A stretch of 64,000 bases of DNA from an uncultured Verrucomicrobiae bacterium (GTDB lineage Bacteria; Verrucomicrobiota; Verrucomicrobiia; Chthoniobacterales; UBA10450). Below, in pieces: positions 43,153-64,000 of this stretch (position 1 is its first letter; every line of letters starts with the position of its first letter). The stretch spans positions 288,001-352,000 of the forward strand of contig CAWFGO010000002.1 in assembly GCA_963815455.1 (NCBI GenBank). Direction: 5' to 3'. A program made the translations under genes and the position numbers. The notes under the pieces are model-generated. The model was not told the DNA's origin and did not search any database. It worked only from the letters and a program-made list of their open reading frames with translations.

Positions 43153-44249
43153 CTCAGTTTCAGCGTGGCCAGACCGAGCAGGGCGAAAATCGGCGGAAAG
43201 AATCCAAAATCGCACGATCACGGTGTTTTCCTTCCAGCCGATCAATTCGAAATGATGATGGATCGGCGACATGGCGAAAATTCGGCGGCCGGTCAGTTTG
43301 AAACTGAGCACCTGCAAAATCACCGAGACCGCTTCGATCACAAAAATCCGCCGACTACGACGAGAAGCAGTTCCTGTTTACAACAGATCGCTACAACGCC
43401 GATCATGCCACCAATGGCGAGCGAGCCGGTGTCGCCCATGAAAACTTTCGCCGGATGACAGTTGAACCAGAGAAAGCCAAGACCCGCGCCGATCAGCGCG
43501 GCACAAACTACCGTGAGCTCGCCGGTAAATGGATAGAATGGGACCTGCAAATATTCGGCGATCCGGAAATTGCCCGCCGCATAGGTAAGCAACGCGTAGG
43601 CGAATGCAACCGTGACCGTGCAACCGATCGCGAGGCCATCAAGACCGTCGGTCAGATTGACCGCGTTGGATGCCCCGACAATGACCAGCGCGAAAAAGAA
43701 AAAAGTAAACCAGCCCATGTTCGTGATGACCGGCGCCTTGATAAACGGCACATAAAGCGAACGCGCCTGGACTTCGAGCAACGGACTGGTGAGAAAAACC
43801 GCCGTGACGATGGCGGCAAGAATGAATTGGAATAGCAGCTTGTAGCGGCCGCTCACACCGGCCGATTTTTTCTTCGTCACTTTCAGGTAGTCGTCCGCGA
43901 AACCCAATGCGCCGAGATAAAGCATGGTGAACAAGGCGAGCCAGACGAAACGATTATCCGGGCGCGCCCAAAGCACGCTGGAAATAACCACGGCGCCAAT
44001 GATGAGCACGCCGCCCATCGTCGGCGTGCCCTGCTTGCCGCCGTGGAGCTCGGCCAGGCGATGAACTTCCGCCGCCAAGCGAATTGGTTGACCCAACTTC
44101 AAGCGCCGTGAGTTTCGAATCACCCAGTTCCCGAACACGAGCGAGATCGCGAACGCGGTCACGGCGCCCGCCACTGCTCGGAACGTGACGTAAAGGAAAA
44201 CGTTGAAGCCGCCGAATTGATCGCTTAGCCGATGAAGGTAATACATCAT
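43149..44249 (-). CDS. mraY: MraY translocase (frameshifted near the 3' end)
   Basis: [32 protein letters not shown] and PIHHHFE. Confidence 0.96.
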
Positions 44250-45643
44250 GAGGCGACTCCTCCCGCGGGTTGATGTTTCGAAAACTCGTCGATCACCAAT
44301 TCAGTGCGGGCCAGCCGACTGCCCTTGATCAAAACAAGATCGCCGGGCGCGGCGATCTCGGCCAGCAACTCCGCCGCTTCCGATGTCGATCCTACGGTGA
44401 CGCTATTTTCCAAACCGGCATCTTTGGCCGCCTCGGCAATGGCGGATGCGGCATTTCCGATTGCAATTAGATGATCGATTTTCAGCGCGGCGGCGGCTTC
44501 GCCCACTTCGCGATGATCCCGCTCGGATTCCTCTCCCAGCTCGCGCATCTCGCCCAGCACGGCGATCCGTTTCCCATCCGCGTCCAGTTCCACCAGCGTG
44601 CGCAAAGCTGCCTTCATCGAATCCGGATTGGCATTGTAACTATCGTCGATGAATTGCACGCCGCGAACCTGCCTTGATCTGCAAACGCGCTTTGGTGAGC
44701 GGAGTGCCAGCGAGTCCGGCCGCGCATTCTTCCAGCGAGAGTCCAAACACGCGCCCGGCCGCAATGGCGAGCATCGCGTTTTGCACCATGTGCAGACCCG
44801 GCACCGGCAATTGCCCGCGACAGCGGTGCGCCCCTTCGAGAATCGTAAACTCCGATCCATCGGCGCTCTGGGTGATTTCGCTGGCGCTGAATCGTACCCT
44901 GCGTTGTCCCCGCGAAAACGATCTTCGCCCGCGTCCGCTCCGCAATGCTCTTACTGAATGCATCGTCCGCGTTGAGAATGACCGTTCCCTGCGGGCCAAC
45001 CGCTTCGGCTAATGCGCCTTTTTCATTTGCGATCGCTTCCCGCGATCCCATAAACTCGATGTGCGCGATGCCGACGTTTGTAATAATCGCCGCATCCGGC
45101 GCAGCCAGCTTCGACAGCGCGGCGACCTCGCCAGGGTGATTCATTCCGATTTCCCAAACGCCGATTTCGTCATCGGACGTCGCCTCGAGTATAGTGCGGG
45201 GCAAGTCCAACGTGATTGTTGAAATTGCCTTCCGTCTTCGTGACTCGAAATTTTTTGCCGAGGACCGAGGCGGCAAAATCCTTCGTGCTGGTTTTGCCGT
45301 TGCTTCCAGTAATGGCGAGGACTTTGAGCGGCAGCGATTTTCGATAATTGGCGGCGAGGGTTTGATAAGCCGCCAGCGTATCGGCCGCCCGAATCAAGGC
45401 GAATTCCTTCGGAACTTTCCCCTTCCAATCAAGCTCGACAATCGCTCCAGCCGCGCCTGCCTTCCCCGCCGCTTCGACAAATTTGTGTCCATCGAAATTT
45501 TCGCCGCGCAACGCGACAAATAATTCGCCGCGCTTCAACGTGCGCGAATCGGTACTGATCTTGTTGACGCTAATCTTCCCGTCTCCGGAGGAAAGTTTCG
45601 CACCGGCGAGTTGAGCAATCTGAGAGAGTGGCAGCGAATTCAT
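44246..45643 (-). CDS. murF: MurF ligase (frameshifted)
   Basis: TDSR, GENFDGH, TGSNGKTSTK, EIGMNHPGE, DSYNANPDSM and KGSR. Confidence 0.95.
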
Positions 45644-47149
45644 CAAAACTCCATGGGATGATCTTCAATCGCGCGACGGGCCACCTGAATATCGTCGAAC
45701 GGGATCGTGTGATCGGCGAATTCCTGATACGCTTCGTGACCTTTGCCTGCAATCAGAACAATGTCGCGCGGCTCGGCAATTTTCACCGCGCGCGTAATCG
45801 CCTGAGCGCGATCGGTGATTTTTTCATAACGATCGGCGCGAAAACCTTTCTCGATCTCGGCGATGATTGCATCCGGATCTTCCTTGCGCGGATTATCGGA
45901 GGTGACGATCGCGTAATCGGCATGTCGATCCACCGCCTCGGCCATGAGCGGGCGCTTTTGCCGGTCGCGGTCGCCGCCGCAACCGAACACAACAATCAAA
46001 CGGCGGGGCTCGAGCTCGCGAAGTGTCTTGATCACATTCAACAGCGCGTCCGGCGTATGCGCATAATCGACAAAGACCTGGAACTGCCGCTTTGCCGGCA
46101 CGATTTCCAATCGGCCCGGCACTTGCGGCGATTTCGTCAGGCTCAGGACGGCTTCTCGCAGATTGACCCCCAGCGCGTTGGCGGCGGCCAGCGCGGCCAT
46201 TGAATTCGCAACATTGAACCGGCCGATCAATGGCACGCGTACCAGATAACTTCGTCCCCGCGCATCCAGTTGATACGAGGTGCCGCCAAATTCCATTCGG
46301 TAATTCGAGGCGCGAAAATCAGCGCGCGCACCCATCCCGAACGTGACCACCGAAATGCTCCCGCCACCGCGGGTCCGTCCTCCGGCGAACTTGTCGATCT
46401 TCTTAAGCAATTGCTCGCCGTAGCGGTCGTCGATGTTAACGATCGCGACCGCTTTGCGCTTTTTTTGTTGTTGAGCCAGTTGGGTAAACAATTTCGCCTT
46501 CGCCTCGAAATAATTTTCCATGGTGCCGTGAAAATCGAGATGGTCCTGGGTGAGATTGGTGAACACGGCAACGTCCCACTCGATCCCGCCGGTGCGGTCC
46601 TGGGCCAGCGCGTGCGATGAAACTTCCATGGCCGCGGCGCGACAATCTGCGTTCGCCATTTGGGCGAGCAACTCCTGCAAATCGAGCGACTCCGGCGTGG
46701 TGCGCGTGGCCGGCAAAACCCGCTCGCCGATTTCGTAGCGCACGGTGCCGATCAAGCCGCAACGCAAACCGGCCTTCTCGCAAATGTGCTTGATAAGAAA
46801 GTGGTGGTCGTTTTGCCATTCGTGCCGGTAACAGCGGCCAGCTTCAATCGGTCCGCCGGATGCCGGTAAAAGGTGGCGGCGAGATCGGCCAGCGCGCTGC
46901 GGGTATTTTCGACGACGAGACAAGTCGCGCGCGAATGTTTTTCTTCGCGCTCGGTAACGATCACCGTGGCGCCTTTTTCGATAGCCTGCCCGATGAAATT
47001 GTGTCCGTCATTTTTCTCCCCCGCAGCGCCACGAACATGCCATTCCTCTGCACTCGCCGCGAGTCATACGCGATGCTTTCCACCGCGCGATCAAGTGGGC
47101 CGATGATTTCGCGAATTGGAATTGCACCGGCGAGAGACTTGAGCTGCAT
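45643..47149 (-). CDS. murE: MurE ligase, meso-DAP type (frameshifted in the 5' part)
   Basis: [37 protein letters not shown] and AGKGHE. Confidence 0.96.
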
Positions 47150-47177
47150 GAGGATTCAACAACATTGCGCAAAGTGC

Positions 47178-48944
47178 TCAATGGGGCGAAGCATTGCTTG
47201 AGGCGACTCTTCCCACCGGAATGGCTTTGCGGATTTCCTCATGCGGTTGAAGATCGAGATAACGGGCCGCTTTTTCGGCGATCCGGGCAAAAATGGGGCC
47301 GGCCACAAGTCCGCCGTAGTTCAGTTCCGGCGTAGCTGGTGTGGGCATCGTCCAGCACCACCAATCCGACAAACTCCGGATGATCCGCCGGCAAATATCC
47401 GCTGAAAGAGACGACATATCTTCCTTGTTCGTATCCGCCTTTGGGATCGACTTTTTGCGCCGTGCCGGTCTTGCCCGCAATCATAAAACCCGGGACGGCG
47501 GCCGCCGCGGCGGTGCCGCGATCACTCACGACACCGCGCAGCGCATCGCCGATTTGTCTGGCTGTCTGGGGAGAAATTACCTGGCGCAACACGACCGGCG
47601 AAAGCGAGCTGATCGTCTGGCCGTCATCGGAGGTGATTGATTTTACGATCCGTGGCGTGACCAGCTTGCCGCCATTGGCAATGGCCGCCATCGCCAATGT
47701 CATTTGAAGGGGCGTGACTCCGATCTCATGCCCCATCGGGATTCGCGTAATGGAAATCTTGGTCCATGATTGGGGCGGCCGAATCAAGCCGCTGATTTCG
47801 CCGGGCAACTCGATCCCGGTCCGTTCGCCAAAACCGAACCGGCGAATGTATTCGTAAAATTTTTCTTCGCCCAGGCTGATGCGCGAGCTTGGCGGCGCCG
47901 ATGTTGCTCGATTTCACGAGCACATCCTTCACGGTCAAATCGCCGAAAGGCCGGTGATCGTGGAGCGCGGTCCCGCCAAAATGCCCATCGGCCATTCTCG
48001 CAAAAAATGACCGAGTCAGGCCGGAACCTGCGTTCGTTGAGCGCGGCGGCAGCCGCGACGATCTTGAACGTCGAACCGGGCTCCATCATGTCGATGATGG
48101 CGCGGTTTTTCATCTGCTCGGGTTTGGCCTGGGAGCGCAGGTTCAAATCGAAGCTCGGACGATTGGCCATGGCCAGGATCTCGCCGGTTTCGGGGCGCAT
48201 AAGAATGATTGTCGCCTTGTTAGGCGTATATTCGCGCATGGCGGCATCGATCTCGTTCTCCACGATGTTCTGCAGATTAAGATCGACAGTGAGCCGGACG
48301 TTGTAACCGTTGCGGGGCGCGCGTTCCTGCCCGCGATACAGAACGATCTCCTGGCCGGCCCGGTTCCGCTCGGTGAACCGGTAGCCGTCCTGACCGTGCA
48401 GATATTCTTCCATCGACGCTTCCACGCCCTGTATCCCGCGATGATCGAAATCGGTGAACCCGATCACGTGACAGAGCATCGGTCCGTTTGGATAAACGCG
48501 TTTGCTGTCGGGCTCGAAATAGATTCCGCCCAAATCCTGCTTTCGCATTTTTGCCACCAGCGCACCGGCCTCAGTGTCCGGCACTTCGCGCTTGAGCACG
48601 ATGTAACGACGGTCGCTGTGTAGTTTCTCTCTCAATTCCCGGGCCGGGATCTTCAAGGCGCCGCTGAGAAGATCGACAGTCGCCTCTATATTATTAAGAC
48701 GGCTCGCATCGGCCACGACCGTTTGCATCGGCACATTGTCCGCCAGCACGTCTCCGTTCGCGTCGAAAATCGCGCCGCGCTCGGCCCGGATGGTCTGCTT
48801 ATGAACGTGTTTTTCAGCGGCAAGCCCGGCGTATTCGTCGTGCTTGATCATCTGAATATAAACGAGCCGGAATGAGAAAATGCTGAAAAGCGCGGTCAAG
48901 CCGAGGCAAACGACCACGCAACGAATCCGGCTGTTCCACTTCAT
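47178..48944 (-). CDS. ftsI: Class B PBP FtsI (frameshifted)
   Basis: RGAIFD, EPGSTFK (SxxK), KSSN (SxN) and KTGTAQK. Confidence 0.93.
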
Positions 48945-55636: not shown

Positions 55637-56886
55637 ATGAATAACGATCGCAGAGTAGTCATCACTGGCATGGGCGTGATCACGCCGATCGGCAATGATC
55701 TGGAGACTTTCTGGTCGAATCTCAAAAACGGCGTCAGCGGCATTCGCAAGATCGAAGCGTTCGACACCGCTGATTACGATTGCCGAATCGCCGGCGAAGT
55801 GCGCGACTTCGACGCGAAACCATTTTTCAAGAATCCAAAGGACGTTCGGCGCACCGATCGTTTCACCCAATTCGCCATGGCGGCGGCGAAAATGGCGTTG
55901 GAGGACGGCGGCGTTGATGCGGAGAAACTCCAGCGCGATCGCTTCGGGGTGATCGTCAGCAGCGGTATCGGCGGGCTCAAAACGCTCCAGGACCAGCACA
56001 CGATCCTGCTGACGAAAGGGCCGTCGCGAAATTCTCCGTTCACGATCCCGATGCTGATCAGCAACATGGCCAGCGGGATGATCTCGATGGAATACGGTTT
56101 GCAAGGCCCGAACCTTTGCATTGTGACCGCCTGCGCGACTTCCAATAACGCCATTGGCGAATCGTGGCGCATGATTAAGTTCGGCGACGCGGATATGTTT
56201 CTCGCGGGCGGTTCGGAAGCATCGATTGTCGCGATTGGTCTGGCTGGGTTTTCCGCCATGAGAGCGCTTAGCCTCGCAATGACGAACCGGAGCGCGCCTC
56301 GCGCCCGTTCGACCGCGACCGGGATGGCTTTGTCATGGGGGAAGGCGCGGGCGTGGTCGTAGTAGAAGAACTCGAGCACGCCAAAGCGCGCGGCGCGAAG
56401 ATTTATTGCGAACTGGCCGGGTATGGTCTGAGCGCGGATGCTTATCACATGACAGCGCCGCCGCCGGATGGCGAAGGCGCGGCGCGAGCCATGCAAATGG
56501 CGCTCAAGCACGCCGGCATCGCCCCCGAGGAAGTCGATTACATCAACGCGCACGCCACCTCAACGGACATTGGCGACATTTGCGAGACCCGCGCGATCAA
56601 GAAGGTCTTCGGCGAGCATGCGCATAAAGTTGCGATCAGCGCGACGAAATCCATGACCGGTCACTTGCTAGGCGGGGCTGGCGCGATTGAAATGGCAGCC
56701 TGCGCTTTGAGTATTCGTGATTCGGTGATTCCACCAACGATCAATCTGGAAAATCCGGATGAGGCCTGCGATCTCGATTACACGCCAAAAGTTGCCCGGG
56801 AAAAGAAAGTGCGCGTCGCCTTGAATAATGCCTTCGGTTTCGGCGGGCATAATGCCACGCTCATCGCCAAGGCGTTCGAAAGTTAG
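55637..56886 (+). CDS. fabF: 3-oxoacyl-ACP synthase II (frameshift near 56272)
   Basis: [31 protein letters not shown] and FGFGGHN. Confidence 0.96.
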
Positions 56887-56927: not shown

Positions 56928-57395
56928 CTACTGATCGACAAAAATGGGCGCGGCGGTAATATCCGCGGCGGTAAACTCCAGACCGTGTCCGCCCTGTTGG
57001 AGATTTTTCAGGAGACCCGCCACACTCTGCGCGGCTTGAGACGCGTAAAAACGCACCAGGCCGACAGTGGTGCGTCCGCCAAACACGGTGATCATGATCG
57101 CATCTTCATCGACTGAATTCATGAACACATGGCTGCCGTTACCCTGATGGTAAAGCGCATTGAACTCGACCTCGCCTATGCGCCGGGCGAGTTCCCGCGT
57201 GGCCGCGAACGAGCCGGCGGCAAGCGCAGCGATGATCGTGACATCCATGGCGTTCATATCGCCGAACTGCGAGATAACGTTGCCGCCGCGATCGATCACG
57301 ACCGTCAATTCGGCTTCCGCCTTTTTCAAAAAATCGGCGAGCACGCCGTCAAGGGAGGCGACGTCTTCAATGGTCAGGACAGGGATCGCGCTCAT
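56928..57395 (-). CDS. mglB: Roadblock/LC7 protein, MglB-type GAP
   Basis: VIDRGGNVI, AALAAGSFAATRELARRIGEVEFNALYHQG and TTVGLVR. Overlaps the mglA stop. Confidence 0.9.
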   Translation of the reverse strand: MSAIPVLTIEDVASLDGVLADFLKKAEAELTVVIDRGGNVISQFGDMNAMDVTIIAALAAGSFAATRELARRIGEVEFNALYHQGNGSHVFMNSVDEDAIMITVFGGRTTVGLVRFYASQAAQSVAGLLKNLQQGGHGLEFTAADITAAPIFVDQ

Positions 57396-58069
57396 GCAGG
57401 AGTGGGCGCGCTCGATTCGTGCGCCGAAGGCGGCTCGACCGGAATGGCGATCGGCGCCACCGGTCGCTGCGGGACGTCGCTTTGTTTGCTGAACTTATGG
57501 AGCAATATCTGGGAAACAGCGTTTAACGCGGCAAACACGTTCTGGCCGGTGCTGGAAATGACCTCAAAACTCTGGAGCCGCTTCTTCCGGTTGTTCATGG
57601 TGTACTCCATGTAATTCACTGGAGCGATATCGGGCAGGTCGCGCTTGTTGTATTCGAGCACTAATGGGACATCGTCGATGGCGACGTTCTGAAGTGAGAG
57701 ATTTTCCTCCAGATTCCTAAAGCTCTCGACGTTCTCCTCCATTTTTTCCCATTGGGAATCGGCCACGAACACGATGCCGTCGGTGCTGCGCAAAACCAGT
57801 TGGCGGGTGGCGTTGTAGATGACCTGGCCGGGAACGGTGTAGAGCTGAAACTTGGTCACGAAGCCCTTGATGACGACCGCATTGAGCGGCAGAAAATCGA
57901 AAAACAAGGTGCGATCCGATGCGGTCGCCAGCGAAACCATGTCGCCCCGGTTCTTCGGGCTGATCCGCTGGTGGATGTAAGCGAGATTGGTTGTCTTCCC
58001 GCAAAGGGCCGGCCCGTAGTAGACAATCTTAAATTGAATCTCGCGGCTGGCGTAATTGATGATCGACAT
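57392..58069 (-). CDS. mglA: MglA small Ras-like GTPase
   Basis: KIVYYGPALCGKTTNL, DRTLFFDFLPL, YTVPGQ and YNKRDL. Confidence 0.95.
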   Translation of the reverse strand: MSIINYASREIQFKIVYYGPALCGKTTNLAYIHQRISPKNRGDMVSLATASDRTLFFDFLPLNAVVIKGFVTKFQLYTVPGQVIYNATRQLVLRSTDGIVFVADSQWEKMEENVESFRNLEENLSLQNVAIDDVPLVLEYNKRDLPDIAPVNYMEYTMNNRKKRLQSFEVISSTGQNVFAALNAVSQILLHKFSKQSDVPQRPVAPIAIPVEPPSAHESSAPTPA

Positions 58070-58078
58070 ATTCTCGGC

Positions 58079-60226
58079 TCAATCCCTTCCCTGTGGTCCC
58101 GTTTCGGCCAACTCCGGTTGCGCGTAGGTGCGCGAAAGTTTCTGGACGATGGCCGTGAGTTCCTCTTGCGTTTCGACGGCGAGGCTCGCGCCGCCGGCGT
58201 GCACCGCCGTCAGGCAAATATTGCCTTCCATGAAAAATGTGAGCGACGAATCCGCGCAGTGCAGCGTCATCGCCTTGAAGGCGCCGAGTTTCGTGTCGTT
58301 AACGTGCTGGCCGATTTTCTCCCAAAGCGAGGGCGTCATTGCGCAAACGCCATCGGCGCTCAGTTCGGCTGGAATATTTCCGGCCAGGGATAGGCCATCG
58401 GCAAAACTAATCGCGCAGGCCCCCACCCCCGGCAGCGTCACGGCGCGGGCAACGACTTGTTTGGCATCGATGTCTTCGGTCGGCACGGGCGAAACGTCCG
58501 CCGTTGCGGCGGCTTCTTTTTCTTCCGCTTGAGGTTCGGGGGTGGCAGACTTCTTCTCCGCGGCGGCGATGGCGTCGAAACGTTTCGCGTCTTCCTCCGC
58601 CTGGATCGAAAATGGCGTTTTAAATTCTTCCTTAACTCTGGTTGCGTCCTCCTGATCGGCCCGCGTCCGTAGAGCGCCGGAAGGGAGATGCCTTAAAATT
58701 TCCTGCAACGGCAGCGTCACCGGCGTTTCGTTTTGATCGATTATGAATAATCCGCGATGCATTTCGGGGATCGCGCGGTGGAAAGCCTTGGCCGAAACGA
58801 TCACGCGACCGCTGGCAAGCTGAGGCTCGATTAGCGACATTGGAAATTCGACCAAGACATTCTCGTCAACAGACATCGGGCTGCCGTTCAATTGGAAGGC
58901 CGGCACCTCTTGCAAGAGCAGTTGCAGCGGCACTGCTAACTTGGTCCCGCCATTTCTCGGGCCCGATTTGATAGAAACGGGCGGCGCCTTTTCTTTCGGC
59001 TCGACTCCCGGCACCAAAGTAAACTTCGGACGAATATCCTCGGACGGCGACGTGAACTTGAACGGAATCCGCGGGGTCTTGGCCAACTTGGAGGACTCCG
59101 CGCTGGTGGCGGTTGGTTCCTTCGAGGGCGACTCGTCTTCCGGCTGCTTCGGTTGCTCCGCCGCTGCAGGAGGGACGTCTTTCTCCACAGCGGGCGATTT
59201 CAGAACCGGCGAAGGAGTTGGAACGGGCGGCCCGCTTGAGGCTGGAACTATCTCAGAGGCGGGCACACCCGTCCCGTTCGGTGGAAGATGAAACGGTATT
59301 TTCTGGGGAGAAATTGGCCCAACGTCATGCTGCTTTTTTTCAGGGGACGGGGTCGATGCGCCGGCGGCGATCGATGTCGATCCTAACGCACCCAGATCTC
59401 GCATCGATATGGCCGGACGGGATTGCTGCGGCGTAAGTTGTCGTGCCACTTCGCGAACGGCCGCTTCCGGCTCGGCGGCGGCAAGCGTTAGCGCGGTAGC
59501 GGGCTCAACTTTCACCGGTGGAGCCGCCGAAGCTTGCAGCGGTTTTACCGGAGTCCCAAACCGCTCCGTATCTTCGAGCGTCACCGTGAGGAAAGGGGTC
59601 TCAAGTTGCGGCACCGCCTGTTCGCATACTTGATCGGCGCGCACCTTTAGATTGGCGAACTGTTCCAGCACTTTGGTGAACGGCAGCAAAACCGGGGTGG
59701 AATCGGCCTCGGGGACACTGGTGAGAAAAATTTCCGGCGCTTGCTGGTAGATGCTGGCAAGGGGAACACTCGGTTGACCGGTTGCCATTCCCTTCTCGAT
59801 CTCCGAGGCCTTTAGAATAATGGACCGGGCCGCATCGAAACTGTCCGGCGGCTTGATCGTTTCCCGAGGCAATTGGTCGAGGATGTCGCAAAGCTGAAGC
59901 GAGATAGCGCGTTCCGCGTGCGGCTCTGGCGCAATCGCGGCCGCCTTTGGCGATGAGCGCGAGATTTTTTGAGAAGAATCGAGTGATATTGTGCGCGGCC
60001 CTGGAATCGTCGCGGGCTTTCCTATTGGCGCGGCACCACCGCGGGGTTCGAATCCAGCGGAGGCCATCCGCGCCCGCGCGGTGTTCGGCAACACTGTCTT
60101 GCTCAGGCGCTGGTCGCTCGGTTTTTCGACACGAACGATCCCCGACGGCGTGTGCTTGGTTACATGAACCAGGGGGAACAGCCGCTCTTTCACATTTTTA
60201 AAAAGATCGAGGAATGGAATCGTCAT
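58079..60226 (-). CDS. 715-aa protein with two internally repeated unknown domains, Pro-rich linkers and a C-terminal roadblock-like domain
   Basis: The C-terminus LPGVGACAISFADGLSLAG...LTFFMEGNICLTAVH is roadblock-like. The repeats share TPVxLP...RADQ...TPF. Confidence 0.75.
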   Translation of the reverse strand: MTIPFLDLFKNVKERLFPLVHVTKHTPSGIVRVEKPSDQRLSKTVLPNTARARMASAGFEPRGGAAPIGKPATIPGPRTISLDSSQKISRSSPKAAAIAPEPHAERAISLQLCDILDQLPRETIKPPDSFDAARSIILKASEIEKGMATGQPSVPLASIYQQAPEIFLTSVPEADSTPVLLPFTKVLEQFANLKVRADQVCEQAVPQLETPFLTVTLEDTERFGTPVKPLQASAAPPVKVEPATALTLAAAEPEAAVREVARQLTPQQSRPAISMRDLGALGSTSIAAGASTPSPEKKQHDVGPISPQKIPFHLPPNGTGVPASEIVPASSGPPVPTPSPVLKSPAVEKDVPPAAAEQPKQPEDESPSKEPTATSAESSKLAKTPRIPFKFTSPSEDIRPKFTLVPGVEPKEKAPPVSIKSGPRNGGTKLAVPLQLLLQEVPAFQLNGSPMSVDENVLVEFPMSLIEPQLASGRVIVSAKAFHRAIPEMHRGLFIIDQNETPVTLPLQEILRHLPSGALRTRADQEDATRVKEEFKTPFSIQAEEDAKRFDAIAAAEKKSATPEPQAEEKEAAATADVSPVPTEDIDAKQVVARAVTLPGVGACAISFADGLSLAGNIPAELSADGVCAMTPSLWEKIGQHVNDTKLGAFKAMTLHCADSSLTFFMEGNICLTAVHAGGASLAVETQEELTAIVQKLSRTYAQPELAETGPQGRD

Positions 60227-60229
60227 CTC

Positions 60230-61948
60230 TTAGCGGTCCTCCGATGTTACGCGCCAGATTTCCTCCAGCGTGGTGATTCCTTCGAGCGCTTTTTCAATTC
60301 CAACCATGCGCAACGTCTTCATTCCTTCGGTGACAGCTTGATTCTTGATCACGGCTGCTGAAGCGCGCTTGATCACCAAACGCCGCACCGTCTCGCTCAC
60401 GGGCAAAGCTTCGATAATTGCGACCCGGCCAAGGTAACCGCGCCCTTTGCAACGGTCGCACCCGCTGCCTTGGTAAAAAACTGTTCCGCTCTTGTCCTGG
60501 AGCGCGAGTCTCTCCAGCATTTCCGGTTCGGGGACAAATTCTTCCTGGCAATTGCTACAGATGCGCCGGACGAGACGCTGGGCGCAGCTCATCAGGATGG
60601 AACTCGAAATCAGGAACGGCTCGATGCCCATGTCATCCAAACGGGTAATTGCGCCTGCCGCATCGTTCGTGTGCAACGTGCTCAAGACCTGGTGACCGGT
60701 CAGCGCGGCTTTGACCGCGATATCGGCTGTCTCGTTGTCGCGAATTTCTCCCACCATCACGATGTCCGGGTCCTGGCGCAGGATGGAGCGCAGAGCGGAA
60801 GCAAAATCGAGCCCGATATCGCTGCGCACCGCCACCTGGTTGACGCCCATCAGCTCGTACTCGATCGGGTCTTCCACCGTTACGATGTTATATTCGGGGT
60901 TGTTCAGCTCGTGCAGAACCGAGTAGAGCGTTGTGGTTTTTCCCGAGCCGGTGGGTCCAGTCACCAGAATCATTCCGTGCGGTGCGTCGATCGACTTTTT
61001 GAACTTGGATAGCGTGTCCTGGTCCATACCCAACTGGTCGATCCCGCCGCTCAGAGAAGCCTTGTCCAGAATTCGGATCACGATTTTTTCGCCATGCGCA
61101 GTGGGGAGGATCGAGATACGCAGATCGACTTCCTTGCCCATCACCCGGATCCGGAACCGGCCATCTTGCGGGAGACGGCGCTCGGCGATGTTAAGTCCCG
61201 CCAAAATTTTGATGCGCGACGTGATGGCCAATTGCAACGCCTTCGGCGGCGATTCGGCCGGGATGAGCTCGCCGTCTATTCGGTAGCGTAATTTGAGCGC
61301 GGTGTGAAATGGCTCGATATGAATATCGGAAGCTTTTTCCTTCACCGCCTGGGCCAGGATCAAATTCACGATCTTGATGACCGGCGCGTCTTCGCTGTCG
61401 GAAGCCAGCCGATCGAGATCGATGTCCTCCCGCTTGGCGACCTGCACTTCCACCTCGCCCGCTTGCACCGCTTCGTCGGAAACTTGTTTGAGCACGGCGC
61501 TCATATTGCCCGCGCCGTGAATTCCGCTGAGCGTCTCAACCACGGCTTTTTCCGTGGCAATCATCGGCACGATCTCGAGTTGGACCCGGCGTTTCAGATC
61601 GTCCAGCGCGAGGACGTTCGTGGGATCGGCCATGGCCACGAAAAGTTTTCCATTCAGACGCGCGATCGGCAGCAGCTTGTTCGCTTTGGCCATTTCCCGC
61701 GGCACCAGTTCCATGACCTCCTCGGGTACACGCAACCGCGTCAGATTGATCGGCGGCGTGTTCAGACAACGCCCCATGCTAAAGGCCATGTCCTGCTCGG
61801 TAACGAATTGGCGATCCGTTAAAATCTTTAAGAGCCGGCCGCCTTCGTTCTTCTGAATTTCAACCGCTTCGTGCAGTTGATTGGGCAGAAGCAGTCCGTC
61901 CTCGATCAGGACATCGGCGATGCGTTCTCCGAAAGATTTACTTTTCAT
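60230..61948 (-). CDS. pilB: PilB/GspE-family assembly ATPase
   Basis: ASDIHIEP, RRLPQDGR, GPTGSGKTTT, TVEDPIE, LRQDPD, TGHQVLSTLH and a tetracysteine motif. Confidence 0.93.
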   Translation of the reverse strand: MKSKSFGERIADVLIEDGLLLPNQLHEAVEIQKNEGGRLLKILTDRQFVTEQDMAFSMGRCLNTPPINLTRLRVPEEVMELVPREMAKANKLLPIARLNGKLFVAMADPTNVLALDDLKRRVQLEIVPMIATEKAVVETLSGIHGAGNMSAVLKQVSDEAVQAGEVEVQVAKREDIDLDRLASDSEDAPVIKIVNLILAQAVKEKASDIHIEPFHTALKLRYRIDGELIPAESPPKALQLAITSRIKILAGLNIAERRLPQDGRFRIRVMGKEVDLRISILPTAHGEKIVIRILDKASLSGGIDQLGMDQDTLSKFKKSIDAPHGMILVTGPTGSGKTTTLYSVLHELNNPEYNIVTVEDPIEYELMGVNQVAVRSDIGLDFASALRSILRQDPDIVMVGEIRDNETADIAVKAALTGHQVLSTLHTNDAAGAITRLDDMGIEPFLISSSILMSCAQRLVRRICSNCQEEFVPEPEMLERLALQDKSGTVFYQGSGCDRCKGRGYLGRVAIIEALPVSETVRRLVIKRASAAVIKNQAVTEGMKTLRMVGIEKALEGITTLEEIWRVTSEDR

Positions 61949-61954
61949 GCACGC

Positions 61955-62839
61955 TTAAGCCCGCGACTCGAGCCGGTAAATTCCCTGTAAACTTTTTACG
62001 ATCGCCGCCGGCCGGGCCAGGTACCAGGTCACGGTGTAATCGACCGATTGTTGCACCGCTTCGCGTCCGGCCGAATCGAACGGATTGCAGCACGCCACCA
62101 TCATCGTGCGACTGACCAGATCGAATGGCACGAAAAGACGACCGAGCGTCAGATAATCAGGCACCATCGGTGCGATCTGCCGGTCGACGTCGTAATATTC
62201 CAACGGCACGTAGGCAAACTTCGTCCGGTCGATCAGCGCCGAAAGCACCTTCTCCAGCTTCTCGACGTTCCCCTTGCAAAGCTGATCCAAAAGGGACTGG
62301 GCCAGCGCCTGGCCGGTCAAGTTCTTGTTCTGGTGCTCCACCACTTCCAGCACCGGCTTCACTTCTTCTTCGGGAAAGAGCTGTTGCACGATCAAAAATT
62401 TCGCCAGTTGATCCGTGCCGCGGTCGTGCAGGTTGGCCAGTTTGCCCACGTGGGAGCCGCCGCGAATGTCGATCAACGCCCCCTCCGTTCCGGTCGCGCC
62501 GTTAGTTCCTCCGGCTTTCGCAATCTCCGCGCCGGATGCTTGCAAACGCACTTCGATTTCGCCCAGCATGGCGAGGATATCTCCCGCGTTCGGTTCCTTC
62601 ACCAGGATCATCTCGCATTCCTCCATCGCCAGCGTGTAAGAACCGGCGGTGAAATAAGCCTCGGCCAATCGCCGGGAAGCACGCAAACAATCGTCGTGCC
62701 GCCCCACTTTTTGGTAAGCTTCCTTCAGAATTTCCAGCGATTGATAGTCGTCGGGTTGAGTTTGAGTGATAGCCTCAAACATCTCGATCGTCTGGACGAT
62801 CTGGTTGTGTTCTTGCTCCGACAGAGGGTGTTCCAGCAC
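61955..62839 (-). CDS. TPR-like plus GspE/PilB N-terminal-like domain protein (no ATPase domain)
   Basis: Helical TPR-like N-terminus (QPDDYQSLEILKEAY...RLAEAY...EPNA). The C-terminus YVPLEYYDVD...FVPFD...MVACCNPFD parallels PilB's LLPIAR...FVAMADPTN. Confidence 0.72.
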   Translation of the reverse strand: MLEHPLSEQEHNQIVQTIEMFEAITQTQPDDYQSLEILKEAYQKVGRHDDCLRASRRLAEAYFTAGSYTLAMEECEMILVKEPNAGDILAMLGEIEVRLQASGAEIAKAGGTNGATGTEGALIDIRGGSHVGKLANLHDRGTDQLAKFLIVQQLFPEEEVKPVLEVVEHQNKNLTGQALAQSLLDQLCKGNVEKLEKVLSALIDRTKFAYVPLEYYDVDRQIAPMVPDYLTLGRLFVPFDLVSRTMMVACCNPFDSAGREAVQQSVDYTVTWYLARPAAIVKSLQGIYRLESRA

Positions 62840-63166
62840 AACGGGCTGTAAAAGCCAGAAACATGCCCCGACTGGCTAATCCCCCGAAAATCGCTCTTAA
62901 AATTGCGAATTTCTCAGCGCTGCAACCGAATCGCGCAAAAACGCCGGAAATCAGGGAACCGGTGCGAGGTCGCCTGTGTCGGACGCACATCCGCGCTATT
63001 TGTAGCGGCGGTGTCTGACCGTCGCACTTAAGTCCGGAACCCGCCTGTCCCATTTATCCCAACTACGTTGGACGCATCCCCGCGTTTCCATTCGCCATGG
63101 TTGCCCTCGACCTCCGGTCCCTGATTGCCACTCGTCACTCGTCCGTCCTTTTGATATATTCACGCC

Positions 63167-63826
63167 GTGGAATCGTGCCGCGCTCGTCACTCTGCCTTCA
63201 CCCTGCTCGAACTCCTCGTGGTCATGGGAATAATCGCGCTCCTGCTCCTGGCCGTGATCCCGGCGGTCACGTCGATCTCAAAATCCAGCGGGCGCAAAGG
63301 CGCGATCAACAATCTGCTGGGGGCCATCGAGCAAGCCCGGACCGAAGCGATCAAGACTGGCCAGGCGGCGTATATCGTTTTCCCTGCGTTCGCCACCGGG
63401 TCGCAAACGACACTCGATCGCTACAACTACAAATCGTACGCAATCTTTCAGGACGATCCGGCGAATCCGGCCACGCCGAAACAGCTCGCAAATTGGAAAA
63501 CGTTCGCGACCGGTGTTGCGCTCAGGGCAGCCGGCCCCACCCCTCTCTCCGACCTGGCCGACCCCGCGACGCTCACTCCGGCGGTCACATTCAAGTTCAC
63601 GCCGGAAGAAGGCGCGGACACATCAGGGTTTCGTTGCATCAAGTTCAACGCAAACGGCGAAGTGGAAGGGCCCGCCGGCACTGGTAAGATCACGCTGGCC
63701 ATCTTCGAAGGATATGTAAATGGGGGCACCGAAGTCGTCACATCAGCAAGGACGGGCGGCGAACCAGCAGCCACGGAGTCGATAACCATCGCGCGCCTTA
63801 CCGGCCGCGCCGAACGCGGACCATGA
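63167..63826 (+). CDS. Prepilin-type GspH/FimT-like protein (Verru_Chthon cassette D-like)
   Basis: SAFTLLELLVVMGIIALL, IEQARTEAI, FNANG and a terminal LTGR. Confidence 0.85.
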   Translation: MESCRARHSAFTLLELLVVMGIIALLLLAVIPAVTSISKSSGRKGAINNLLGAIEQARTEAIKTGQAAYIVFPAFATGSQTTLDRYNYKSYAIFQDDPANPATPKQLANWKTFATGVALRAAGPTPLSDLADPATLTPAVTFKFTPEEGADTSGFRCIKFNANGEVEGPAGTGKITLAIFEGYVNGGTEVVTSARTGGEPAATESITIARLTGRAERGP

Positions 63827-64000
63827 AACATCGACAAGTTCTCTCTGTAACCGCGGGCGCCGACCGCGGCCCCGTGTCGCATCGATCCGCGTTCAGTCTC
63901 GTCGAAGTCGTGCTCGCGTTGGGCGTCGTTTCATTCGCGATCGTTGCGATTCTCGGCATCCTGCCAACCGGCCTGCAAACCGGCAAGTCATCGCAGGACG
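63823..64000 (+). CDS. Prepilin-type protein (Verru_Chthon cassette B-like), partial
   Basis: ATGA overlap with the previous gene and SAFSLVEVVLALGVVSFAIVAILGILPTGL. Confidence 0.82.
   Translation, partial: MKHRQVLSVTAGADRGPVSHRSAFSLVEVVLALGVVSFAIVAILGILPTGLQTGKSSQD

Follow-up and report, generated by a model that had tools for sequence, protein, structure and literature searches.

In Myxococcus, the mglAB genes are encoded apart from the pil genes. The M. xanthus GTPase MglA acts on the localisation of PilB through SgmX (PMC11580455), a protein with 14 tetratricopeptide repeats (TPRs) that binds MglA by its C-terminal TPR triad (PMC9811614). The accessible part of the former paper states the step from SgmX to PilB as open and reports that no direct contact of SgmX with PilB or PilM was detected. 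We analysed a stretch of 64,000 nucleotides (the window) from an uncultured Verrucomicrobiae bacterium of the order Chthoniobacterales (contig CAWFGO010000002.1, positions 288,001 to 352,000). Here, mglA and mglB share an apparent operon with pilB and with genes for two further proteins: a TPR protein carrying a copy of the PilB N-terminal domain MshEN, and a protein of 715 amino acids (aa) with a roadblock tail and two copies of an unannotated domain of ~125 aa, which we name DX. This feature is real and conserved, a likely variant of the MglA-to-pilus pathway with two undescribed proteins and a domain of unrecognised fold. Our preferred reading, with a probability of roughly 0.6, is that MglA gates a type IVa pilus in space, with the DX-roadblock and TPR-MshEN proteins as adaptors, and the action of M. 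xanthus MglA on PilB counts in its favour. In the literature, most subscription papers lying outside our search, no description of the operon, the DX domain or a TPR-MshEN protein was found.

The genome with the locus is ~90% complete and 3.6 Mb in size. Five intact open reading frames on the minus strand encode proteins of 294, 572, 715, 225 and 155 aa, with intergenic gaps of 6, 3, 9 and -4 nt, exactly as an earlier reading of this DNA from sequence alone (the sequence-only reading) had stated. Two prepilin genes diverge from them, as that reading had also seen. The spacing suggests that the five genes are co-transcribed. The features are as follows.

56928..57395, minus strand: mglB, a roadblock GTPase-activating protein of 155 aa, recognised by Robl_LC7 and by solved MglB chains.
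57392..58069, minus strand: mglA, a Group 1-type small GTPase of 225 aa, recognised by solved MglA chains, with R53, Q82 and NKRD intact and Ala at position 21.
58079..60226, minus strand: gene for the DX-DX-roadblock protein of 715 aa, whose architecture and co-occurrence suggest a membrane-anchored scaffold of the MglA/MglB switch.
58118..58471, minus strand: C-terminal roadblock domain of the 715-aa protein (about residues 586-703), divergent from MglB, with Robl_LC7 below its cut-off.
58562..58945, minus strand: DX copy 2 (residues 428-555), with an AlphaFold2 model and no match in Pfam, PDB sequences or known folds.
59543..59911, minus strand: DX copy 1 (residues 106-228), found by hhalign against copy 2.
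60179..60226, minus strand: N-terminal aromatic/basic helix of the 715-aa protein, a candidate membrane-targeting sequence, from its conservation in close homologues.
60230..61948, minus strand: pilB, type IVa pilus extension ATPase of a TPR-associated clade, 572 aa, from TIGR02538, its motifs and its clade (Shimodaira-Hasegawa-like approximate likelihood ratio test, SH-aLRT, 100).
61955..62839, minus strand: TPR-MshEN protein of 294 aa, a probable PilB adaptor, from Pfam TPR_14 and MshEN and as neighbour of the clade PilB.
63167..63826, plus strand: minor prepilin, FimT/GspH-like and Verru_Chthon D-like, from N_methyl and GspH, with TIGR02596 below its cut-off.
63823..64000, plus strand: start of a second minor prepilin, PilV-like and Verru_Chthon B-like, with TIGR02598 below its cut-off, running past the window edge.

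In common with the M. xanthus system, in which MglA and MglB act with SgmX, FrzS and SopA on PilB according to the accessible text of its reports (PMC11580455, PMC9811614, PMC3199381, PMC7519303, PMC7668184), the locus encodes an MglA orthologue that keeps both R53 and Q82, an MglB of the roadblock type, a TPR protein and a type IVa PilB. Unlike in Myxococcus, all of these stand in one operon, mglA precedes mglB, MglA has Ala at position 21 and CheW was not found. Moreover, the TPR protein has about two to three repeats and a copy of the PilB N-domain instead of 14 TPRs, and no counterpart of the DX-roadblock scaffold is described.

The gene order is strongly conserved among close relatives, which we studied in the best 80 of 387 confirmed MglA loci. 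The order TPR-pilB-715aa-mglA is present in all 50 loci that have at least 6.5 kb upstream. Wherever the downstream sequence reaches 700 nt or more (78 loci), mglB follows mglA without exception. Median gaps among these relatives are 11, 6, 4 and -4 nt, and a divergent prepilin gene lies within 3.5 kb in 44 of the 50. The closest MglA relatives are in metagenome genomes of Chthoniobacterales/Spartobacteria or unclassified Verrucomicrobiota. Beyond the family, six genomes from elsewhere in the order were examined, and four of them have the five-gene order (G174, G427, G428 and G432, not G429 or G430). Both the complete conservation among close relatives and its extension to other families favour our reading.

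We also took an even sample of 401 genomes across the phylum, 30 of which have mglA (all with E 1.4e-65 or better). Besides this locus, 29 mglA loci were sampled; only 4 of them have the full five-gene order, and we rejected the idea that the operon is conserved phylum-wide. The conservation of gene order across Verrucomicrobiota on which the sequence-only reading had staked its proposal therefore holds in the family and in most of the genomes from the rest of the order, but not in the phylum.

By gene content, the operon is the junction of a module A, consisting of MglA, MglB and the DX-roadblock protein, and a module B, consisting of the TPR-MshEN protein and PilB. Module B, with its one PilB clade, is usually beside pilC and pilins and is more widely spread than module A. 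Outside the order, the five-gene order recurs in G004, and the arrangement mglA-mglB-pilB(-pilC) occurs in G062, G365 and G383. Together with G370 and, tentatively, G169 and G289, where the TPR-MshEN gene stands before mglA, the modules adjoin in 7 of 19 genomes outside the order. These represent about three arrangements and some three independent events, where a crude estimate of chance gives 0.13, which again favours our reading. This count leaves out G352, in which pilT is directly upstream of mglA-mglB (L049:10489-11580). Gene order and module adjacency make a functional link between MglA and the pilus motor likely, as had been proposed.

A DUF4388 gene, whose domain we take to be PATAN, lies inside the fetched locus in 11 of the 29 cases, a further point in favour. 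Group 1 MglA neighbourhoods with PATAN proteins beside mglA-mglB are known from a survey of Ras-like GTPases (PMC4316618), and PATAN domains are reported, in the accessible text, to bind PilB1 and PilC in Synechocystis (10.1101/2021.06.11.447907). The accessible part of the survey calls Group 1 neighbourhoods variable, has no pil, GSPII or TPR label in its neighbourhood table and lists one verrucomicrobial MglA, a Group 5 protein of 174 aa from Methylacidiphilum. Five scattered DUF4388 genes in the present genome (C1:1616999, C1:350723, C3:74223, C2:598614 and C1:1262119) are candidate inputs to the module.

MglA matches solved MglA chains over residues 1-195 (E 1.5e-63), and its Group 1 label denotes this similarity to the M. 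xanthus and Thermus thermophilus chains (E ~1e-63). The residues G19, GKT 24-26, R53, T54, G81, Q82 and NKxD 141-144 are invariant in 30 of 30 aligned homologues, which bears out the P-loop, intrinsic Arg finger, Gln and NKRD recognised in the sequence-only reading. Arg53 and Gln82 are described as intrinsic catalytic residues (PMC3199381). Judged by these motifs, MglA is an intact GTPase with its intrinsic Arg and Gln. What had been overlooked is that residue 21, the equivalent of Ras Gly12, is Ala. Of the 30 verrucomicrobial homologues, 13 have Ala there, 12 have Gly and 5 have Pro. Ala21 is natural variation and does not undo the orthology of MglA. Four of the five Pro21 cases are at loci in which mglB is shortened and divergent (L056, L058, L060) or was not found (L059).

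MglB consists of a single roadblock domain (Pfam Robl_LC7, E 1.7e-10), and its gene overlaps mglA by 4 nt. It matches the solved MglB chains 6h5b, 6izw and 6hjm (E 2-4e-17) and scores 62 bits on the NCBIfam MglB model, under the cut-off of 200. From these matches and its position, it is the roadblock partner of MglA. Only two roadblock domains were found genome-wide, both within this operon. At one locus (L063), mglA and mglB appear in a single frame of 366 aa, by either a true fusion or an assembly error.

The second of these roadblock domains is the tail of the 715-aa protein, which is composed of a conserved N-terminal helix, the two DX copies, a Pro/Ala-rich linker and this tail. The tail matches Robl_LC7 with an E-value of 0.015, below the cut-off, and many relatives score above it. 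We considered whether the tail could be a second MglB, and rejected this because its profile match to MglB is only 23.5%. The two DX copies are clearly related (hhalign probability 97.9%, E 5e-13). A DX profile retrieved 2,095 cluster representatives; among the best 150 relatives, 125 also have a roadblock tail, with one to four DX copies per protein. In 12 of 46 relatives hand-picked from the 150 listed, we found a ComEA-like helix-hairpin-helix (HhH) domain, which sits between the DX copies and the roadblock where positions are given (P0057, P0073, P0081, P0082, P0085, P0091, P0094, P0101, P0123, P0127, P0132 and P0139; two are named Lentisphaeria proteins). Much larger proteins with six to eight weak DX-like repeats also exist (P0031, P0115 and G430:C9:773978), one of 1465 aa behind a hydrophobic N-terminus and one of 2283 aa behind a receiver domain; the DX-like match in G430:C9:773978 was not recovered by our local profile.

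DX copy 2 is confidently modelled by AlphaFold2 (predicted local distance difference test score, pLDDT, 90.2; predicted template modelling score 0.69) as four strand-helix units and a terminal helix. Searches of Pfam with 110 members and of PDB sequences gave nothing consistent. The model likewise has no credible fold match in the PDB with Foldseek (best E 4.3), among 48,161 chains with VIA-align (best Z 2.3) or in a viral library (best E 1.1), and the ESM Atlas returned only unnamed Verrucomicrobiota clusters with scores of at most 0.87. Such absence of matches does not prove that the fold is new. The whole 715-aa protein, folded without an alignment, gave an unusable model (pLDDT 38).

The first seven residues of the 715-aa protein are highly conserved across 61 close homologues. 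Short aromatic/basic N-terminal helices are typical of its relatives, of which 63 of 95 pass an ad hoc test for membrane targeting, versus 68 of 586 control genes. The N-terminus of the 715-aa protein itself fails this test on net charge. We consider it probable that this N-terminus binds the membrane.

The DX gene adjoins mglA in 22 of 29 loci. Across the 401 genomes, 30 have mglA and 33 have DX; both are found in 29 genomes, mglA only in 1, DX only in 4 and neither in 367, a co-occurrence that supports our reading. However, 22 of the DX matches are circular because the profile was built from genes adjacent to mglA. The unbiased part of the comparison is that six of the seven mglA genomes without an adjacent DX gene have DX elsewhere, versus 4 of 371 genomes without mglA. 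Within the family, DX was found in 17 of 22 genomes, with two unpublished genomes left out. This pattern of occurrence makes the DX-roadblock protein the steady genomic partner of MglA. The four DX-only genomes (G020, G146, G056 and G299; L215-L218), in which mglA was not found, have stand-alone proteins of ~150 aa with a DX core of ~90 residues and no roadblock.

Ragulator is a membrane-tethered extended scaffold with roadblock domains for a small GTPase. The likeness of the DX-roadblock protein to this eukaryotic complex, with its LAMTOR1 anchor and roadblock subunits (named in PMC9481161), is one of analogy only, with homology evident in the roadblock fold alone. One DX relative has a weak Pfam match to LAMTOR5 (E 2e-4). 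In bacteria, MglC, RomY and RomR/RomX are each, in the accessible text, a second roadblock-containing or Pro-rich partner co-occurring with MglA and MglB (PMC9481161, PMC4719450, PMC12719032). Judging by these descriptions, the present protein is set apart by the fusion of its roadblock to DX repeats, a Pro/Ala-rich linker and a candidate membrane helix.

The other adaptor candidate has its TPRs at the N-terminus and its stand-alone copy of the PilB N-terminal domain at the C-terminus. A profile of its family aligns with the N-terminal domain in solved structures of PilB/PilF (E 3e-17). Full-length TPR-MshEN proteins occur in 76 of the 401 genomes (E 2e-31 or better), with about 15 further partial matches uncounted. 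Of the 30 mglA genomes, 23 have one (10 of these cases being circular, as they were in the query alignment, and 2 tentative), compared with 53 of the 371 others. Because 53 of the 76 carriers lack mglA, the protein is chiefly a partner of PilB and not an SgmX. This, together with its few repeats, weakens the proposal that it is the SgmX equivalent; it is the 715-aa protein whose occurrence follows that of MglA. In its distribution, the TPR-MshEN protein regularly accompanies its PilB clade across genomes. In G370 its gene also immediately precedes mglA (E 3e-21 once the row of that protein is taken out), and the same may hold for G169 and G289, whose matches are weak (E 1e-3 to 6e-3). Occurrence beside mglA without a clade PilB in these genomes would be the pattern expected of a bridging adaptor, within one family of incomplete genomes. 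A complex prediction for MglA-GTP-Mg and the TPR-MshEN protein scored 0.00 (mark 0.32), which is no evidence either way.

The separate occurrence of the modules allows another explanation, in which MglA, MglB and the DX-roadblock protein are a polarity or signalling unit with some other output, such as PATAN regulators, type II secretion or cell organisation, while the TPR-MshEN protein and PilB are independent of them and the adjacency reflects inherited order or shared transcription. Each module indeed also occurs alone, 22 of the 29 sampled mglA loci have no pilB nearby, and the nearest secretion genes in G342 and G354 resemble gspF/gspG. However, the modules have come together repeatedly and in different arrangements, TPR-MshEN proteins are enriched in mglA genomes by the counts given above, and the Myxococcus precedent, by analogy, favours coupling. 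We therefore regard co-regulation without coupling as unlikely, although it deserves to be taken seriously.

Several observations weigh against spatial gating of the pilus by MglA. Synteny within the family is by itself weak evidence because the unrelated fabF and guaB are also kept in most loci. Only 7 of the 29 sampled mglA loci have pilB nearby, and seven mglA genomes on our ATPase tree have no matched ATPase in the PilB clade (G123, G354, G169, G247, G289, G352 and G370, metagenome-assembled genomes that are 91-99% complete). The modules are separable in both directions: mglA is missing from 53 of 76 TPR-MshEN genomes, and TPR-MshEN from 7 of 30 mglA genomes. CheW was not found in the 90% complete genome, and so no Frz/Chp-like reversal input is evident. 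Finally, G21V in MglA is reported to abolish hydrolysis stimulated by the GTPase-activating protein (PMC3199381), and Ala21 might blunt it. Conversely, the genome has five PilT-like ATPases, PilM, secretins and ComEC but no match to FlhA, which we count in favour of our reading.

PilB has an MshEN N-domain, Walker A and B motifs, Asp and His boxes and a tetracysteine motif, all intact. It is nearly equidistant from two models, scoring 635.5 bits on TIGR02538 (cut-off 675.65) and 616.7 bits on the GspE model (cut-off 630.25). With regard to c-di-GMP binding, its MshEN domain scores 37.1 bits on NF053729 (cut-off 38), with Ala for the Gly of the canonical RLG...L motif, and the canonical R/K-L/I-G pattern occurs in none of the clade members checked. 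In a quick maximum-likelihood tree of 74 ATPases, with SH-aLRT as the only support measure and two split ATPase pieces from this genome left out, PilB belongs to a clade of 26 rows (SH-aLRT 100), whose members are usually beside a TPR-MshEN gene. For all 18 pilC genes found adjoining clade members, the best-scoring counterpart in this genome is its orphan pilC, C1:504911 (322-375 bits versus at most 283 for the other two), another point for our reading, and PilA-like major pilins are present at several clade loci. Given the clade and these links to pilC and PilA-like pilins, PilB is most likely a type IVa extension ATPase, separate from the type II secretion genes. By the same comparison, its platform partner is the orphan PilC C1:504911, the partner of the PilB clade.

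Elsewhere in the genome are other PilB/GspE ATPases, five PilT-like ATPases, three PilC/GspF genes, PilM, at least three secretins, ComEC and two major-pilin-like genes (C1:1445935 and C1:1446471). The five PilT/PilU-like ATPases include two tandem pairs (C1:69464-71872, C1:846068-848326, C3:582678-583910). A separate GspE is encoded with a secretin, and there is a gspF-G-H-I cluster. One study already reports, in its accessible text, a Chthoniobacteraceae genome with type IV pilus genes and predicted twitching (PMC11596606), so pili in this lineage are not news.

Upstream of the operon, the divergent cassette has four prepilin-like genes in the order D-B-C-A, of which the C-like and A-like genes are beyond the window edge. 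In number and order they correspond to the Verru_Chthon A-D cassette, and they also share features with the FimT/PilV/PilW/PilX minor pilins. They differ in that all four are below the Verru_Chthon cut-offs (D 33 of 70 bits, B 39 of 51.4, C 29 of 257 and A 21 of 332, for TIGR02596, 02598, 02599 and 02600) and that the A-like gene is in frameshifted pieces. The sequence-only reading was thus right about a prepilin cassette beside the operon, which is conserved, but its suggestion of Verru_Chthon-type pilins is not borne out by the scores, and the genes are probably a minor-pilin cassette. A second minor-pilin-like cassette of three genes is ~13 kb past the right window edge (L001:14188-17404), and its last gene has a weak HpsA-like match.

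That reading had gone further, taking the locus for a self-contained, GTPase-gated pilus or secretion system. On this view, the Verru_Chthon-like pilins next to the operon are what it assembles, and the TPR protein is a direct effector of MglA in the manner of SgmX. The divergent prepilin kept in 44 of 50 close loci, the TPR gene directly before mglA in G370 and the nearly equal PilB and GspE scores are in keeping with this. However, pilC, pilT/pilU, pilM, the secretins and the major pilins are all away from the locus; the absence of pilC and pilT had been noted at the time, and the platform, alignment and secretin genes prove to be elsewhere too. Moreover, the genome has its own GspE with a secretin and a gspF-G-H-I cluster, genes of the PilB clade go with pilC and PilA-like pilins, and TPR-MshEN proteins are unlike SgmX in architecture and mostly occur without MglA. 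A self-contained system is therefore improbable. The idea that the module serves DNA uptake specifically, with a scaffold that marks the site of DNA delivery by the pilus and in some lineages binds DNA itself, is very improbable, since, although HhH domains occur in some of the hand-picked DX relatives, ComEC is present and CheW was not found, the 715-aa protein itself has no HhH domain, ComEC is widespread (10 of 14 control genomes) and the scaffold looks cytoplasmic, unlike ComEA, which acts outside the inner membrane.

Regarding the assembly, several housekeeping genes are frameshifted, which points to indel errors; the five operon genes are intact nonetheless. The genes in frameshifted pieces are murF-like, ftsI-like, fabF and the A-like cassette gene (window 44246-48944 and 55637-56886; L001:2094-4783; names by inspection). 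Promoter and terminator scans gave chance-level results only, GC content is unremarkable, and a search for a plasmid match to the 715-aa protein found none.

The gene distribution is best explained if MglA gates a type IVa pilus, with the operon as its regulatory head and the structural genes lying at scattered sites elsewhere. The 715-aa protein would attach to the inner membrane through its N-terminal helix and dock MglA and MglB by its roadblock tail, its DX domains or both. MglA-GTP would thus be confined to one site, probably a pole, where it would license PilB via one or both adaptors. At that site, the TPR-MshEN adaptor may recruit or release PilB at the PilC/PilM platform. Minor pilins for the tip or for priming would be provided by the divergent cassette, and C1:1445935 and C1:1446471 would encode the major pilins. 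The output would be a retractile pilus used for attachment, twitching or DNA uptake.

A bolder version, which we entertain only tentatively and consider rather doubtful, is that the 715-aa protein founds a class of MglA scaffolds that are anchored in the membrane and built from a new-fold DX and a roadblock, and that it replaces RomR/SgmX. PilB might then be handed to the pilus base via the decoy N-domain on the TPR protein, and the five proteins might form a complete, reconstitutable switch-to-motor pathway for a polar retractile pilus in the abundant, non-flagellated Chthoniobacterales of soil.

For the link between switch and motor, this genome names two adaptor candidates, one that tracks MglA and another that tracks PilB. 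With the candidates sorted in this way, the switch-to-motor question becomes testable with five soluble proteins. In addition, DX is a confidently folded, repeated domain without a family or fold match. The carriers of the operon are a common group among soil metagenome genomes, an uncultured soil family of Verrucomicrobiota.

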